From IMG/VR virus record IMGVR_UViG_3300035491_000281: DNA of 64,000 nucleotides; one strand, given 5' to 3'. The translations under genes were made by a program, and so were the position numbers. Positions 35,767-43,442 of this stretch are shown piece by piece. The notes under the pieces are model-generated. The model did not search any database. It was given only the letters and a program-made list of their open reading frames with translations, and was not told the origin of the DNA. The DNA comes from a virus (Duplodnaviria; Caudoviricetes). Position 1 is the stretch's first letter; every line of letters begins with the position of its first letter.

Positions 35767-36168
35767 ATGGAAATGCCAAAACTCACTCGCATCCAGCCAC
35801 ATCTGTTCCAGGCGTACTATGCCTGGATGGTTGAGAACGCGGCCAAGATCATGATCTACGTTGACGCGGTCCGACTCACCGACGAGTTTCTGAAGAGTAA
35901 GGCCGGTCCCGACGGGACTCTGGCGTTGGATGTTACGCCCCAGGCGGTTCGTTTCCTGTCAACCTCCCAAGAAGGAATTTCTTTCCACACCCGCTTTAAG
36001 GGTGTCGATACGCCGGTGGTGATTCCCTTCGAAGCCTTCAGCACCCTGGCCGGCTGGATCACCGGTTACGAAGAGCCGGTGGTGCTGGTCTTCCCAATGG
36101 TAGAAGATGTGGAGACGCTCCCGACCCCGCCGCAGGACAACCGCCCGAAGCTGACGGTGGTGAAGTAA
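35767..36168 (+). CDS. sspB: SspB-like ClpXP adaptor
   Basis: HLFQAYYAWMVEN, ISFHTRFKG, IPFEA, C-terminal XB-like RPKLTVVK. Confidence 0.85.
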   Translation: MEMPKLTRIQPHLFQAYYAWMVENAAKIMIYVDAVRLTDEFLKSKAGPDGTLALDVTPQAVRFLSTSQEGISFHTRFKGVDTPVVIPFEAFSTLAGWITGYEEPVVLVFPMVEDVETLPTPPQDNRPKLTVVK

Positions 36169-36620: not shown

Positions 36621-37061
36621 ATGGATCGGTTCTCCACGCAAACTGAAACCGCGCGGGCGGTATGGCAATACGCCCTAAAGTCAATGATTGCAGAACTGGT
36701 CGTAGGGGGTGAATTCATGTCAGTGAGTTACCCCGACACGGACAGCAACCCAGCATTGCCCGAAATCGTGGTGCGGTTACCGCTGGGGGAGGATCACATG
36801 CTCAAAATGGCGTTGTTCGTCCACCCTTCACTGGCCGCCAGAGAGCTACTGGTCCTTTTACCGACTGAACGCGAGTTGATGGAGGCCTTCCCGCTACTGC
36901 GGGAAGAGCCACGTCTTTATGCCGGCCTGATCCGCTTCATCAACCGCACTCAACAGTACGGTCTGCGGATGCGCATTACCGAACCCCACGAGGGGTTCAA
37001 ACGGCTGGAGTTCACGTACATCAACGACCGTTCCTTTACTGTAAAGATGGTATTCCAATGA
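36621..37061 (+). CDS. Hypothetical protein
   Basis: RBS GAGG. Confidence 0.6.
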   Translation: MDRFSTQTETARAVWQYALKSMIAELVVGGEFMSVSYPDTDSNPALPEIVVRLPLGEDHMLKMALFVHPSLAARELLVLLPTERELMEAFPLLREEPRLYAGLIRFINRTQQYGLRMRITEPHEGFKRLEFTYINDRSFTVKMVFQ

Positions 37062-37252
37062 GCAATCCCAACAACTGCGATACCTGCCGCTACAAAGAAA
37101 TCAACCGGTCGGCTGGGTATTGTTACATGTTCGCCGAAAAGCCCACCGAGATCTGCATGCAACACAGCCACCGCGAGCAGGGGGAGTTATCCTTTCTCTC
37201 ATCAGTGTTGCGGAACCTGGCAGGTCGCCCGAAGGAGCATATTGGTGAATAA
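37058..37252 (+). CDS. Small Cys/His protein (possible Zn binder)
   Basis: CDTC...C...CMQH; ATGA overlap. Confidence 0.55.
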   Translation: MSNPNNCDTCRYKEINRSAGYCYMFAEKPTEICMQHSHREQGELSFLSSVLRNLAGRPKEHIGE

Positions 37253-38866
37253 AACCCTCAACCCGGTAGTCCGCAACCAAACGCTGGTGATGGCGCGGGC
37301 CGGGGGCCAGACTTTACCGCCGAAACTCTGCACCTGATCGTAACGGGCATGCAAGCCTATTACGAGGAGCAGTGGCTCGCCGAGAAGGGTAGTTTGAGCG
37401 AAGACGAGAAGTCTACCATCGCCGCTCGGGTCAAGCGGGAAGTGCGCGAAAACCGCTGGGACGAGGCCAGCAACACCATCATGGTGAATGCTGCGCAACA
37501 GGCCGCCTTTGAGGATGTGGTTCACCACTATACTCGGGTTTTCACCGACCCGAACTACACGCAGGCATTCCGTCCGACCAACTACATCAACGACCCGAAG
37601 GATTTGCGTGATCTCTCGGCTTTCACCTTCTGGGGGGCGTGGGTCACCGTGGCGGAGCGCCCAGGGCAAAGCTACAGCTATACCCATAACTGGCCGTACG
37701 ATCCGGAAGCGGGTAACTACCCGACCAAGGACACCTACGTCTGGAGTTTCCTGTCGATTGCTGCACTGTTCATCGGTATCATGGCCGTGCTCTACATGTA
37801 CGGTCAAATGAAAGCCACCGGCGATGATCCGTTCAAGGAAAGTCTGCGAGCTGGTATTCTGATGTCGACCCCAGATCTGGAAAAGGGTGTGGTGCGTCCA
37901 ACGCAGCGCAAAACCTACCGTTTCTACATGCTGGCCGCAGTGGCGTTTGGACTGCAGGTGTTGGCCGGGTTCCTCTCGGTCATGGACTTCGCCGATCCAT
38001 TCCATGAAACCATCGCCGGGATTCTACCCTACACAGTGCTGCGCAGCTACCACACCCTGTTGCAGATTTACTGGATGTTCATGTGCTGGGTGGGCTACAC
38101 CATCTTCTTCCTGCCGCGGTTGGCGCCAGTGCCGAAGTATCAGGACAAGTTGATTGACCTGCTTTTCTGGCTGTGTGTGATCGTGGGTGTCGGTGGTGTT
38201 GCAGGCGTCTACTCCGGATACAACGGACTGATCACCGGCATGATGGCCTACTGGTTTGGCAGCCAGGGCTGGGAGTTCATGGCGCAGGGACATCAGAAGT
38301 ACGTCATGGAAGGGGTTTGGCTGTTCGTCCTGGCGGTGAACTTCTGGAACATCTTCGCTGCTGGTGTCTTGGGTTCGCTGCTGAACCTACCCATCATCAA
38401 CTACTTCGAGCACGCCACCTACATCACGGGCAACCACGCTCATGGCGCCATGTTCGGGGTGAAGGGTAACATCGCCCTCGCTGGGGTGTTGTTCTGCTGC
38501 CAGCACCTGATCAAACCGGAACACTGGAATGCCCGACTGATTAAGGTGTCCTTCTGGGCACTCAACATCGGCCTGGCGCTGATGATGTTCCTGGCCCTGT
38601 TCCCGGCCGGGATGTATCAACTGCTGATCATCCTCGAATCGGGATACTGGGCGGCACGGGTGCAGGAAGTCACCGGTGGGGAAATGTTCCGCATGTTCAT
38701 CAACCTGCGCGGGATCGGTATCACGATCTTCTCCATTGGCATGCTGATGATGGTGTGGTTCTTGCTCTCGCGGGTACGCCACCTGCGGGCGGAAACCCAA
38801 CCTGAGGGTGACAACTGGGCCAACCATGAAAATGATTGGCGCAAGCAGCGGGACGAAGCCCTGTAA
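37245..38866 (+). pseudogene. nod: Nitric oxide dismutase (Nod)-clade qNOR-like heme protein, internally deleted; open ORF 37349-38866
   Basis: GDGAGRGPDFTAE, YSYTHNWPYDP, SYHTLLQIYWMFMCWVGYTIFFLPR, GSQGWEF, GVWLFVLAVNFWN, TGNHAHGAMFGVKGNIALAGVLFCCQHL match recalled Nod-type sequences; HxWVE and H(H/N) non-heme-iron segments absent; N-terminal TM absent. Confidence 0.8.
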
Positions 38867-38883
38867 CAAAATCGACTAACGTC

Positions 38884-38920
38884 GGGCATAGGCCTCTCCC
38901 GCGGGAGAGGCTTTATGTCG
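38884..38920 (+). terminator. GC hairpin with GGCATA / TATGTCG flanks
   Basis: GCCTCTCC/GGAGAGGC after the nod stop. Confidence 0.7.
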
Positions 38921-39810: not shown

Positions 39811-40917
39811 TCAGAAGTCAACCGCGAACTGTACTTCCTCGTCGTCGCGCGACAGCACGTTGACCTTGTATTGGCCATTGGCTTCTTCCTGAGGGGAAGG
39901 TTGGGTGTCGGAGATGTCGATCCAGCTCTTCATGTAGTGCAGAGGATTGGTTTCGACCTGCGGGAAGTTCATTTCCAGACGCAGGGGGCGGGCGACGTTG
40001 GTCGCCGAGAACAACACCCAGCGGTTGAGGCCGTCCATGGTCAGCTTCTTCAGGTCCTCCCCCTCGGCAAACACGAACTTGTTCCACTCAAGCTCGGTGG
40101 CAACGATCTCATTGAGTACCGCCTCCATCCGGGGTTTGAGTTGTTGGTAGGCAATCTGCCCGCGTTCGGTCTTGAGTTCATGGGTGAGCACCGCCCGATC
40201 GAGGTCAACATGGACTTCGTATTCGTCCTGGCAGATTTTCTGCACCGCCTTGCAGATTGGCATGAACAAGCCTTCTTCCCCAAGCGCAAAGGTCACGGCA
40301 AAAGAGGCCATGAACTGAACTCGCTCCAGGCAGAGCATAACGAAGGCGAACATGAAGACCGCATTGTAGGTCTCCTGATCGTTCGGTACCATCCCCAAGG
40401 CGTACTTCAGACCCCGCTCCCGAATCCAACTCAGCTCGCGCGCGACCGCGTTCAGGCGTTGCATGGCTTCGGTGATCGACAGGATCTCGGCCAGCACGCT
40501 GCGCGGGTCGTCGAAGCTGGAGCGGACGATTTCCGAGTAGGTGGCGGCGTGCACCACTTCGTTGTCGGAAATGCGCTGCCAGGCGGCCCAGAGTTCCGGA
40601 CAGGGGTCGAACAGACTGATCACGTGGGCGATGGTGCGGGAGGCCACCGTATCGGCTTCCCACTGCCAGGCCAGCGACTTGATCATCTTCTGCGACTTAG
40701 ACCGTGGCGCCTGCTTGAACTGGGCGTTGCAGGGATGGTAGTCGAATTCGATTTCATCCCAATCCAGTTCTTTCATCGCCTTGTACAGCGACCAGACCAC
40801 CGGGTGATTGCGGTTGACGGTGTCGAACAACCCCAATGGTTGACCGAGGAACAGACTCTGCTCTTTATAGTCGGTTTTCTCGGCATTGAAAATCTTTGGA
40901 TCAAACGTAACAGTCAT
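39811..40917 (-). CDS. nrdB: Ribonucleotide reductase class Ia beta subunit
   Basis: WEADT, NEVVHAATYS (radical Tyr), ERVQFMASF, DEYEVH. Confidence 0.93.
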   Translation of the reverse strand: MTVTFDPKIFNAEKTDYKEQSLFLGQPLGLFDTVNRNHPVVWSLYKAMKELDWDEIEFDYHPCNAQFKQAPRSKSQKMIKSLAWQWEADTVASRTIAHVISLFDPCPELWAAWQRISDNEVVHAATYSEIVRSSFDDPRSVLAEILSITEAMQRLNAVARELSWIRERGLKYALGMVPNDQETYNAVFMFAFVMLCLERVQFMASFAVTFALGEEGLFMPICKAVQKICQDEYEVHVDLDRAVLTHELKTERGQIAYQQLKPRMEAVLNEIVATELEWNKFVFAEGEDLKKLTMDGLNRWVLFSATNVARPLRLEMNFPQVETNPLHYMKSWIDISDTQPSPQEEANGQYKVNVLSRDDEEVQFAVDF

Positions 40918-40973
40918 GTGTTAAACCTGTAAAGAAAGGAAGGGGTGAAGTGCTCGGCTCCACCCCCTGGTAG

Positions 40974-43442
40974 TTACATCTTGCAGCCGCCCGCACCGCA
41001 GTCAGCCGCTTCCTGGCCGTCGGTGTTGAGGGAAACCACCTCTACCATGGTGCCGTCATCCAGAGCTTTCTGCTTGGACGTCATGCTGTTCTGGTAGTAA
41101 CGCGACTTCAGGCCCATCTTCGTCATGTAGAAGAAGCCGTTGAGCATTTCCGTCGAGGTGATCTTCTCCCCTTGCGAGATCCGCCGCCAGAGGTCGGCCG
41201 AGATGCCCTGATCGGTCCACTTCTGCGCAATGGCGTACATGTCGACCTGATCGATGTGGCTGAGATCCCAGGCAGTCTGGTAATGGTCGCCCAGAGTATC
41301 GCCTTCCGGGGCAGCCCAACGCGACTTGATGTTGTTGTCGGTCTTGGTCAGTACCAGCTCCCGCACCGGGTACAGGGAGTTCGGCTGACCAGAGGCCTTG
41401 GAGCTGGACTCGCCCGGCATGTGGCTGGCTACACAGCTGAAACGCATCCCGCGGTTGGCAATGAGTGCGGCACGAACCGCATCCCAGTCACGGGTCAGTT
41501 CTTGTGTATGGATACTGTCAACGTTGCGGTTGTAGGTATCCAGCGGCAAGTAACCTTCCGGCCAACGCGTGCGGTGCATCCACGGTGCATTCCCCCGCTC
41601 CTGACCCAGCTTGATCGACTGAGTGATCAGGTGGTACATGTGGGTCTCGTGCAGGCGGTGCATGGCGTTCTTGCCTTCAATATCGTCGTAACGATAGTGA
41701 TTCTTCGCCATCCAGTAGGCCAGGCCCATGATACCGATACCGGCGTTCATGCGGGCTTTGCTGGTGTAACCGATATGCGGTAGTTCGTAGTGCGCCTTGT
41801 GAATGCAGATATCCACCATCAGTAGGGCGTAGTAGATGACCTCGGCGTACTCTTCGTCCGACTCGATCATCGCCGGCACTACCGCGGCAATGTTACACAT
41901 GGCCACTTCCGGCTCAGCCTTGGTTTCGAGGATCTTCCAGACCTTACCGACTTTTCCATCCTGCGTGGCGTAGGACTGACCCACCTGCAGGTCAATGGCC
42001 GGAATTACCGTGCGTTTCGTACCCACCACGGTTACCGGTTCCACAGCCGACAACTTCAGCTCTACGCCGCCGTCGTTGATGAAACGGATGAAGCCCACCG
42101 ATTCCGCCTGGTACAGATCCATCATGTGCTGGTAGCCACGCTGTGGCAGCATGATTTCCTGACACAGATTGGAGGCGTAGATGGTGTCGTAGAACGGGGT
42201 GTGACGATTCATCTCGTCAACCCAGGTCAGGTAGTAGCGACCGGTCTCGTATGCTTCGTTCAGCGCCAGCAGGATCTGCTCACGGGCGTTGAAGTAGTCC
42301 TTGACAAACAGTGGGTCCTGTTCGTACTTGGTGTAGAGCTCCTCGAAGCGCTTCTCGTCGCCCGAGTACAGAGCGTCGTAGAGATCTGGCGCGGTGAAGC
42401 TGTTGAAGCGGAACAGCTTTTCCTTGCGGGCAGCGAAACGGGCCAGCCATTTGTTGACCGACATGCTGTAGTCGATCCCGCGGATCTTTTTGCTGTCTAC
42501 CGACATCGGGTTAGCCAGCGAGACCAGGGTTTCGCCTTCGGGGTCGTACGCCTGCCAGGTCAGCGTGTCAGCGCCACCGCGACCATTCTGCAGATTCGCG
42601 CCGACCATCTCTTTGGTGGCACGGATGTACGGTAGTTTACCCTGGTGTTCGATCATACCGCCGCGCACCGGATCACCGATGGAGCGGGTATTGAGGTGCG
42701 TACCACAACCGGCCGACATGTAGGTCATGGTGTAAGCAATATGCAGACCCACCCCGATGGACGCGGCATCGTCGTTGTTGCTGTAGATGCAGCAGGAGGC
42801 GTAGCCATTCAGTGGCGTGCCCAGGTTAACGAAATTCGGGGTCGGGGCATTCAGACGACCACCGGAGAGGTGGTAGTAGAGGCGCTCGACGTCGCGCATG
42901 CGGCGCGCTTTGGGTTGGTCTTCGGCCAATGCCATGGCCATGCGCATGTAAGTGTATTGCGGGGTCTCGTAGTTGACGCGCTTGACGCGGTCCTGCAACC
43001 CGTACTTCTTGAAAATGTAGTCCAGACGGAAGTGTGGGTAGGTCTTGTCGAGGTTGTGGTTGATGATCTGCTCGACCTGCGCATATTCAGCGTCGCTGTA
43101 GCGCAGTTTGACCATGTAGCCAATTCCAGCCAGTTTCTGATGCAGTTCTTGCACCGTCGGCATCTGGCGACCAAAGGTGCGCTTGTGCAGCAACGGGGCG
43201 AGCAGGCGTCCAGCCATGAGGTAGTGCGACCAGGTTTCGCCCTGCAGGGTACGCTCAATCAGGCGGTCCTGCAACTCCAGAGAGCTGAGTACGGTCGGGG
43301 CTTCGTTGACGACATCAAGTAAAATACTCTGCCAGTCAATCTGGACCGGTAGGTTCTCCGCAGCATACTCTCCCCAACGCTTAAGCTTGGGGGCAATGAA
43401 GGGTTCACTGTAGCCGTCGAATTTGATAACTTCTTTGATCAT
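40974..43442 (-). CDS. nrdA: Ribonucleotide reductase class Ia alpha subunit
   Basis: APTPNF, YASCC, ASNLCQEI, AMCNIA, C-terminal CGAGGC. Confidence 0.95.
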   Translation of the reverse strand: MIKEVIKFDGYSEPFIAPKLKRWGEYAAENLPVQIDWQSILLDVVNEAPTVLSSLELQDRLIERTLQGETWSHYLMAGRLLAPLLHKRTFGRQMPTVQELHQKLAGIGYMVKLRYSDAEYAQVEQIINHNLDKTYPHFRLDYIFKKYGLQDRVKRVNYETPQYTYMRMAMALAEDQPKARRMRDVERLYYHLSGGRLNAPTPNFVNLGTPLNGYASCCIYSNNDDAASIGVGLHIAYTMTYMSAGCGTHLNTRSIGDPVRGGMIEHQGKLPYIRATKEMVGANLQNGRGGADTLTWQAYDPEGETLVSLANPMSVDSKKIRGIDYSMSVNKWLARFAARKEKLFRFNSFTAPDLYDALYSGDEKRFEELYTKYEQDPLFVKDYFNAREQILLALNEAYETGRYYLTWVDEMNRHTPFYDTIYASNLCQEIMLPQRGYQHMMDLYQAESVGFIRFINDGGVELKLSAVEPVTVVGTKRTVIPAIDLQVGQSYATQDGKVGKVWKILETKAEPEVAMCNIAAVVPAMIESDEEYAEVIYYALLMVDICIHKAHYELPHIGYTSKARMNAGIGIMGLAYWMAKNHYRYDDIEGKNAMHRLHETHMYHLITQSIKLGQERGNAPWMHRTRWPEGYLPLDTYNRNVDSIHTQELTRDWDAVRAALIANRGMRFSCVASHMPGESSSKASGQPNSLYPVRELVLTKTDNNIKSRWAAPEGDTLGDHYQTAWDLSHIDQVDMYAIAQKWTDQGISADLWRRISQGEKITSTEMLNGFFYMTKMGLKSRYYQNSMTSKQKALDDGTMVEVVSLNTDGQEAADCGAGGCKM

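Follow-up and report, generated by a model that had tools for sequence, protein, structure and literature searches.

A likely pseudogene of a Nod-type (putative nitric oxide dismutase) gene in a jumbo phage

Nod proteins are paralogues of those nitric oxide reductases that depend on quinol (qNORs) and include the putative nitric oxide (NO) dismutases; here we describe a damaged nod gene in a phage recovered from a tar-pit metagenome. The stretch that we analyzed (hereafter the window) spans 64,000 nucleotides of a 231,290-bp IMG/VR virus record with direct terminal repeats, IMGVR_UViG_3300035491_000281, which is a metagenome assembly. Within the window, the segment 37286-38866 (+ strand) derives from a nod gene, and we consider it likely that a Nod-type gene borne by the phage was inactivated recently and survives here as a pseudogene. 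It carries two deletions, both with junctions at short direct repeats (8 nt and 3 nt), one of which has removed the beginning of the gene and the other the part that specifies every ligand of the non-haem metal.

Two deletions in a Nod-type gene

The longest ATG-started frame in the segment encodes a protein of 505 amino acids (aa), and together with its upstream part the open frame comprises 537 codons in all (Table 1). Two Pfam families match the 505-aa protein, the NorB cytochrome c-like domain PF22085 (E 1e-27) and the COX1 family PF00115 (E 1e-25), and the best solved relative of the protein is the qNOR of G. stearothermophilus (3AYF, E 1e-75); with E-values such as these, chance is excluded as the source of the matches. 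The match to 3AYF falls into two blocks (query residues 8-327 with 3AYF 118-451, and 306-501 with 594-788), and therefore the start and a central block of the normal enzyme of ~780 aa are missing. In tblastn searches the proteins of intact relatives match genome positions 95219-94173, that is, window 37286-38332. A reading of the letters alone (the sequence-only reading) had proposed a Nod-type membrane-protein gene on the basis of two motifs, and both motifs lie in the 505-aa frame.

At the 5' end, homology to nod starts at 37286-37289 with GDGAGRGPDF, which corresponds to residue 83 of P0002, the nearest intact homologue. The equivalent of P0002 residues 1-82 (~83 codons) is absent, including the start and the N-terminal transmembrane helix (TM I), the one helix that a hydropathy scan places there, as is the upstream region of 100-150 nt that intact phage copies possess. 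Low-depth contigs from a landfill metagenome run (X3) and a 2023 metagenome run (X4) bear on how this junction arose. One X3 contig, 97% identical to the window over 37289-37357, runs 161 nt further upstream into intact nod (...GLMNYGSFWG). Other contigs, from X3 as well as X4, are identical to the window over 37212-37296 and then continue into unrelated sequence (TTCTTTAAGACCGACGGGC...); in X3 the left-flank and the intact-nod evidence come from separate contigs with loose ends and not from one joined molecule. These ends on both sides indicate that the 5' junction is an 8-nt microhomology and that undeleted forms persist in close relatives, and the TTCTTTAAGACCGACGGGC continuation indicates that the exact site of the nod 5' breakpoint is also where the gene content of close relatives departs from that of the phage. 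The continuation beyond 37296 was not found in IMG/VR, the window, the whole phage genome or the loci that we fetched.

The second lesion is one clean in-frame gap of 522 nt (174 codons) between 38282 and 38283, as judged against the intact genes of L002, L004 and L006 (Table 1); it joins Met311 (38279-81) to Ala312 (38282-84). The junction falls in a TGG common to both sides, at the end of an imperfect 17-nt repeat whose left copy specifies GWEFM and whose right copy specifies GWERL. The missing block (P0002 415-588; 3AYF 432-599) contains five transmembrane helices by hydropathy scan, which are NorB helices IV-VIII, and within it lie all of the ligands of the non-haem metal, FeB. The lost positions are, in 3AYF numbering, His508, Glu512, Glu516, His559, His560 and Glu581, the last two being Asn560 and Gln581 in the full-length relatives. 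Three of the six metal-ligand positions are left in the 505-aa frame, namely the haem histidines His235, His363 and His365. Upstream of 38266, another contig of the landfill run reads on into ...AWRVRREGSL, where helix VIII ends intact; the landfill relative, ~95% identical in DNA, has intact nod sequence through both lesion sites. The sequence-only reading had put damage at both of these places and had noted that the metal-ligand helices were lost and the haem ligands (SYH and HAH) kept, all of which the alignments bear out; it had also called the internal deletion in frame and placed it at about 38281/38282, and alignment now fixes its size at 174 codons.

Measured against a functional NorB core (six metal-ligand positions on helices II, VI, VII and X; 12 helices), the remnant thus has neither TM I nor helices IV-VIII. 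Nor is it an intact expressible coding sequence: the first 83 codons, the regulatory region and 174 internal codons are gone, and there is no Shine-Dalgarno sequence before ATG 37349, a feature that 17 of 23 neighbouring starts have. A strong Shine-Dalgarno sequence does precede GTG 37245, which the sequence-only reading had taken as the gene's own ribosome-binding site; the frame that it serves is a different one, and of the claim that the gene has its own ribosome-binding site and terminator only the terminator stands. We rejected GTG 37245 as the ancestral nod start because its frame is unlike the N termini of intact Nod proteins (M..FK[ND]T.A..LLNKKYWF) and closes after 30 codons. In the X4 relative, which is identical over 37212-37296 and then diverges, the same frame closes after 19 codons. 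The window version of this frame ends 11 nt before ATG 37349 and could only feed weak re-initiation there.

The analysis shows the homology, the two breakpoints, residues typical of Nod, the setting in a phage and the existence of intact relatives; the order of events given next, their recency and the absence of any remaining function we infer. An ancestor of the tar-pit phage would have carried a full-length nod gene of ~780 codons, like those of its present relatives, which was then struck by two short-repeat (illegitimate) deletions. The first would have cost the gene its regulatory region, its start codon, TM I and ~83 initial codons, and would have fused what was left, out of frame, to unrelated DNA upstream. 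The second would have removed 174 codons in frame, and with them NorB helices IV-VIII and all ligands of the non-haem metal. What is left is probably transcribed by read-through from the upstream operon as far as the old terminator.

Table 1. Features of the nod remnant in the window, and loci and contigs of intact Nod-type genes
Feature	Position	Strand	Basis or remark
nod-derived segment (Nod-type qNOR paralogue; P0002 residues 83-414 + 589-779)	37286..38866	+	DNA alignment to intact genes of L002, L004, L006
5' breakpoint, 8-nt microhomology GATGGCGC common to nod parent and unrelated left flank	37289..37296	+	loose contig ends in X3/X4
AAGGAG (37232-37) and GTG 37245, 30-codon frame out of frame with nod	37232..37337	+	stop TGA 37335-37
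Longest ATG-started frame, 505 aa	37349..38866	+	open reading frame; open upstream to TAA 37250-52
Haem-c-free cytochrome c-like domain, C-terminal two thirds	37358..37699	+	PF22085 profile positions 62-181 of 181
Met in place of His328 and Asp in place of Glu332 at the former quinol site (Nod-type)	37982..37996	+	3AYF mapping; Met codon 37982-84
Haem b histidine, NorB helix II, in SYHTLLQ	38051..38053	+	alignment
Internal deletion junction with TGG microhomology, end of imperfect 17-nt repeat	38280..38284	+	alignment to intact genes
HAH motif, NorB helix X: haem b3 and haem b histidines	38435..38443	+	alignment; His codons 38435-37, 38441-43
Ile at quinol-binding Asp746 position	38720..38722	+	3AYF mapping
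Terminator-like GC-rich hairpin, then UUUAU	38885..38919	+	dG -28.7 kcal/mol, z -4.3
Full-length Nod-type gene, L002	2457-4796		unrelated Logan metagenome assembly
Full-length Nod-type gene, L004	6493-8862		unrelated Logan metagenome assembly
Full-length Nod-type gene, L006	10001-12436		unrelated Logan metagenome assembly
Full-length Nod-type gene, L009	10001-12523		unrelated Logan metagenome assembly
Contig of P0002			divergent DNA polymerase PF20286, DUF7484; genes 29-56% identical to the tar-pit phage's
Contig of P0003			dCMP deaminase, thymidylate synthase, many small open reading frames
Contigs of P0004, P0006			small unknown same-strand open reading frames
Contig of P0007			Peptidase_S80, thymidylate synthase, ligase
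Contig of P0009			weak PhiKZ_MCP match
Contig of P0012			RNA ligase, radical SAM, HNH
Contig of P0013			helicase, SprT, ~35 small open reading frames

Loss or retention of function

Because the whole non-haem-metal site is gone, the remnant, as judged from its predicted product, cannot encode an NO-converting enzyme, and without FeB the conversion of NO to N2 and O2 by this copy would be impossible. The topology of what is left points the same way. The family of haem-copper oxidases has the histidine of helix II, like the two histidines of helix X, close to the periplasmic side of the membrane. Loss of five helices would fuse the periplasmic loop after helix III (GSQGWEF) to the cytoplasmic start of helix IX, and since the number of helices deleted is odd, the two remaining four-helix blocks would be oriented oppositely to each other, so that no bis-His haem b site could form; on the established topology of the family and the hydropathy scan, the histidines of helices II and X would no longer be on the same membrane face. 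With TM I lost, moreover, a domain that is normally periplasmic would be left without an export anchor.

Several observations weigh against a pseudogene. The 505-codon frame is not interrupted by any stop or frameshift, and its conserved residues have been preserved: the remnant has no mismatch in 89 invariant columns and one in 127 columns that are at least 98% conserved, equal to or better than its intact sisters. Of the 17 differences listed from the landfill relative, 13 fall at third codon positions, and continued purifying selection would produce the same substitution pattern. The 30-codon upstream frame has a strong Shine-Dalgarno sequence, and with 11 nt between its stop and ATG 37349 some re-initiation at that ATG is possible. 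The stretch was not found in any RNA run. The clean frame fits a young pseudogene and is compatible with continued selection too. If the gene is dead, the absence of mismatches in the 89 invariant columns limits neutral amino-acid divergence since inactivation to less than ~3.4%, and the end branch of the remnant (0.11) lies within the range of its intact sisters (0.06-0.21). Seventeen differences are too few for codon position to separate a young pseudogene from a gene still under selection, and we set aside the ratio of nonsynonymous to synonymous divergence (dN/dS) as a test of relaxed selection, since pairwise values are ~0.05 with or without the window copy and dS is saturated (>2) against every assembled relative.

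These same observations are what would be expected if the truncated 505-aa protein were still made, by read-through and re-initiation after the 30-codon frame, and were kept for a new role, such as that of a haem- or NO-binding membrane protein (an option the sequence-only reading had entertained) or of a subunit interfering with the Nod or qNOR dimer of the host. The open frame free of substitutions in invariant columns, the in-frame nature of the internal deletion, the 11-nt spacing from stop to ATG, the bias toward third positions and the retention of the terminator all agree with such a role. Against it stand the opposed four-helix blocks, in which a bis-His haem b site could not form and which make a haem- or NO-binding function improbable; the periplasmic domain deprived of its export signal; and the missing Shine-Dalgarno sequence at ATG 37349. 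A clean frame, for its part, is equally expected of a young pseudogene. In a search of 5.8 billion proteins (length window 278-884 aa; 728 homologues scored), the 119 others among the 120 matches listed were 750-860 aa long and only the phage's own protein had 505 aa. No second case of the doubly deleted architecture was found among the scored proteins, in IMG/VR or in INPHARED, and an exact look-up of the 505-aa protein found no record. Since the data accommodate continued selection, we keep a retained remnant in view as an unlikely alternative to a recently inactivated pseudogene.

Far less likely still is that the deletions, or the junctions between phage and nod, arose in assembly or through chimerism with host DNA, in which case the nod of the real phage would be intact or absent. 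The record was assembled from a metagenome, and the two tar-pit metagenome runs in which the stretch occurs (X1 and X2) may be its own source and so are not independent samples. Nevertheless, one 51-kb contig of X1 and contigs of X2 (word depths ~234 and 590-630) cross both 37286-37297 and 38282/38283 with 0 differences, no alternative joint was found at either lesion in the contigs of these runs, and the contigs exclude a mis-join. In addition, the GC content of the remnant (0.573) is close to that of the phage genome (0.568), its third-position GC likewise matches the phage, and phage genes flank the remnant on both sides in a single record with terminal repeats. The host-DNA chimerism that the sequence-only reading had itself named as fatal to its interpretation is therefore not what the spanning contigs and the GC content show.

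We mapped the diagnostic positions of the family through the 3AYF alignment of P0002. According to Ettwig et al. 2012 (PMC3413370), Nod proteins are marked by a change of the FeB ligand His to Asn, a change of the catalytic Glu to Gln and the loss of the quinol site, quinol being bound in 3AYF by His328 and Asp746; NO dismutation (2 NO -> N2 + O2) is unproven even for the type enzymes. In the window copy, His328 is replaced by Met, Glu332 by Asp and Asp746 by Ile. The columns of His560 and Glu581 are deleted from the window copy, and 190 of 190 full-length relatives have Asn560 and Gln581, as do all 119 of the nearest full-length homologues, P0002 and P0003 included. Two canonical qNORs from genomes that also hold a Nod, L099 (a Methylomirabilota metagenome-assembled genome) and L100 (a gammaproteobacterium), keep His328, His560, Glu581 and Asp746. 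An IQ-TREE phylogeny (LG+C20, 51 rows) separates the 49 Nod-type rows, which include the window copy and the Methylomirabilota Nod that served as clade reference (L089), from L099 and L100 with 100/100 support, and a FastTree phylogeny of 193 rows shows the same split. On residues and branching alike, then, the assignment to the Nod clade holds, as the sequence-only reading had proposed pending such a phylogeny. The notion that the gene stems instead from an ordinary qNOR, which could appeal to the Nod-defining catalytic columns being deleted and hence unreadable in this copy, is effectively refuted by the Met/Asp/Ile at the kept quinol positions (His/Glu or Asp/Asp in canonical qNORs), the Asn560 and Gln581 of all 190 full-length relatives and the 100/100 branch that parts it from the two canonical qNORs.

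The phage and the intact relatives

PHROG matches in the phage include the large terminase, both subunits of a class Ia ribonucleotide reductase (RNR), a helicase and virion proteins of the phiKZ group, and the terminase is 58-59% identical to those of the Pseudomonas phages Psa21, PhiPA3 and Noxifer. Because of these matches and this identity, the carrier of the nod remnant is, by its gene content, a phiKZ-like jumbo phage. The terminal repeats, the phage genes, the GC content and the spanning contigs place the site in a bona fide virus genome and not in host DNA, and the terminase, RNR and virion genes around the remnant agree with the sequence-only reading that the gene is phage-borne.

The remnant is the last member of a long array of genes on the + strand, which the hairpin of Table 1, absent from the list of a simple scan, closes ahead of the convergent nrdB and nrdA genes. 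A scan for sigma-70 promoters returned about as many matches as chance, and we set it aside for that reason and because phages of the phiKZ type use their own polymerases. The genes for the small and large subunits of the class Ia RNR (window 39811-43442, - strand) converge on the remnant. This adjacency looks coincidental, since it is not kept in phages with intact nod; a conserved Nod-RNR module was rejected, RNR never lying within 10 kb of intact nod in the contigs examined. Directly upstream of the 5' breakpoint is a Cys-rich open reading frame of 64 aa (CxxC ... C ... C; window 37058-37252) without a Pfam match; 4 nt of it (ATGA) overlap the preceding gene's stop. Further upstream, a phage protein of 133 aa (window 35767-36168) has an above-cut-off match (E 3e-7) to PF04386, the family of SspB, which serves ClpXP as adaptor for ssrA-tagged proteins, and the product may be a phage-encoded proteolysis adaptor.

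The proteins nearest to the remnant (P0002-P0013) are all full length and 57-77% identical to it in the best BLAST segment. Together with the window copy they make up a clade of thirteen rows supported at 99/93, in which the inner eight rows have support of 97/94. Six of them, P0002, P0003, P0007, P0009, P0012 and P0013, are intact copies on jumbo-phage or phage-like contigs (Table 1), with identities of 63-84% among themselves; over 500 columns, P0002 shares 83% identity with the remnant. The presence of intact copies on related jumbo-phage contigs from unrelated metagenomes confirms the earlier supposition that the lineage carries or carried the gene. The full-length genes of L002, L004, L006 and L009 encode proteins of 779-840 aa with Asn560 and Gln581 and no quinol site, and they lie on phiKZ-like or phage-like contigs, each with its own upstream intergenic region and each at a different genome position. 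Indeed, the position of nod differs between phages and no synteny is shared with the tar-pit locus, the neighbours within 10 kb of intact nod being DNA polymerase, thymidylate synthase, dCMP deaminase, ligase or unknowns. The GC content of nod (0.38-0.53) roughly tracks that of the carrier contigs (0.36-0.51), which suggests that the gene has long been resident and is neither freshly captured nor chimeric.

Two members of the clade, P0005 and P0010, are not on phage-like contigs. P0005 (L007 10001-12361) is the closest bacterial Nod, sister to the inner eight-row clade with 100/100 support; it lies in a bacterial chromosome context (BatD, VWA, guaA), between a tryptophan halogenase gene and guaA and downstream of a Bat/VWA aerotolerance-type operon. 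Because the adjacent GuaA is 91% identical to that of Cellvibrio, this context suggests Cellvibrionaceae-like Gammaproteobacteria as a candidate donor or host lineage. P0010 (L010 1-9756) lies beside at least 7 genes for ankyrin-repeat proteins, on a contig that may be viral, from a symbiont or of another source. Searches of INPHARED phages by megablast or tblastn gave no match, and a single-protein scan of IMG/VR found nothing; a profile scan of IMG/VR found L106 as the only other viral contig (IMGVR_UViG_3300024339_000480). L106 has a partial Nod-like gene at the contig end (9806-11392) and belongs to an HK97-type phage, as its major head protein is of that type; it also encodes a head protease and a homing endonuclease. 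In the tree the Nod-like gene of L106 falls among the gammaproteobacterial Nods, which are sister to the phage clade, and this implies an independent capture.

The intact phage nod genes have low dN/dS (~0.05, with dS saturated). A tentative and doubtful extension of these findings is that a phiKZ-like (nucleus-forming type) lineage has long kept an intact Nod-type enzyme under strong purifying selection and has used it while infecting denitrifying Gammaproteobacteria in anoxic, nitrate- or hydrocarbon-rich habitats, for the removal of NO and perhaps for O2, the tar-pit phage being a fresh loss. If that were true, O2 from Nod might, to give one example of a role, protect or supply the phage's own O2-dependent class Ia RNR.

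Comparison with known Nod and qNOR systems

Among the closest known systems are the putative NO dismutases DAMO_2434/2437 of Ca. Methylomirabilis oxyfera and those of gammaproteobacterium HdN1 (PMC3413370). The window copy shares with them the qNOR-derived architecture and the loss of the quinol site, all of its intact relatives have the FeB His->Asn and Glu->Gln changes, and it falls in the same clade as the Methylomirabilota Nod L089, apart from the qNOR of that same genome (L099). It differs from them in being phage-borne and in having lost the N-terminal helix, helices IV-VIII and the whole FeB site. Moreover, its sub-clade is sister to the gammaproteobacterial Nods and not to the Methylomirabilis branch, the copy being ~55% identical to the Methylomirabilota protein. 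With the qNORs of known structure (3AYF and those of Alcaligenes and Neisseria) the window copy shares the fold family; canonical qNORs keep His328, Asp746, His560 and Glu581, whereas its lineage does not.

The sequence-only reading had stated that no phage-encoded nod was known, which is mistaken: viral Nod was known before this analysis (Gazitua 2020; Elbon 2024). In Gazitua et al. 2020 (PMC8115048), a NOD-like NorB is reported as the neighbour of nirK on St16_omz_317, a marine myovirus scaffold of 52.9 kb from the oxygen minimum zone of the Eastern Tropical South Pacific, and Elbon et al. (bioRxiv 10.1101/2023.11.21.568154) found that viral Nods of Saanich Inlet cluster with the viral NorB of Gazitua et al. 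Compared by published description, the marine genes and the window copy are alike in being Nod-type qNOR paralogues on tailed-phage genomes and moron-like auxiliary genes with their own terminator. The marine viral Nods, however, are intact and lie beside nirK on a ~53-kb myovirus scaffold, whereas the window copy is broken, has no adjacent nirK and belongs to a phiKZ-like jumbo phage of 231 kb recovered from a tar pit. The observation made by the sequence-only reading is thus confirmed and its interpretation partly supported.

Closest to the remnant are the six intact copies on jumbo-phage or phage-like contigs, which form one supported clade with it. Their contigs carry markers of the phiKZ type (PF20286, Peptidase_S80 and a weak match to PhiKZ_MCP) and genes 29-56% identical to those of the tar-pit phage. 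Unlike the remnant, these copies encode 772-840 aa, retain all six metal His/Asn positions and occupy other genome positions. The literature searched contained no mention of a nod gene in any jumbo or phiKZ-like phage. The window gene matters little on its own because it is in all likelihood dead; as a broken copy, it nonetheless provides a natural contrast between loss and retention for asking when nod pays for a phage. The intact jumbo-phage copies extend the marine viral Nod to another virus group and to terrestrial habitats (tar pit and landfill), and as compact single-gene units running from promoter to terminator they may suit the biochemical proof of NO dismutation that is still missing.

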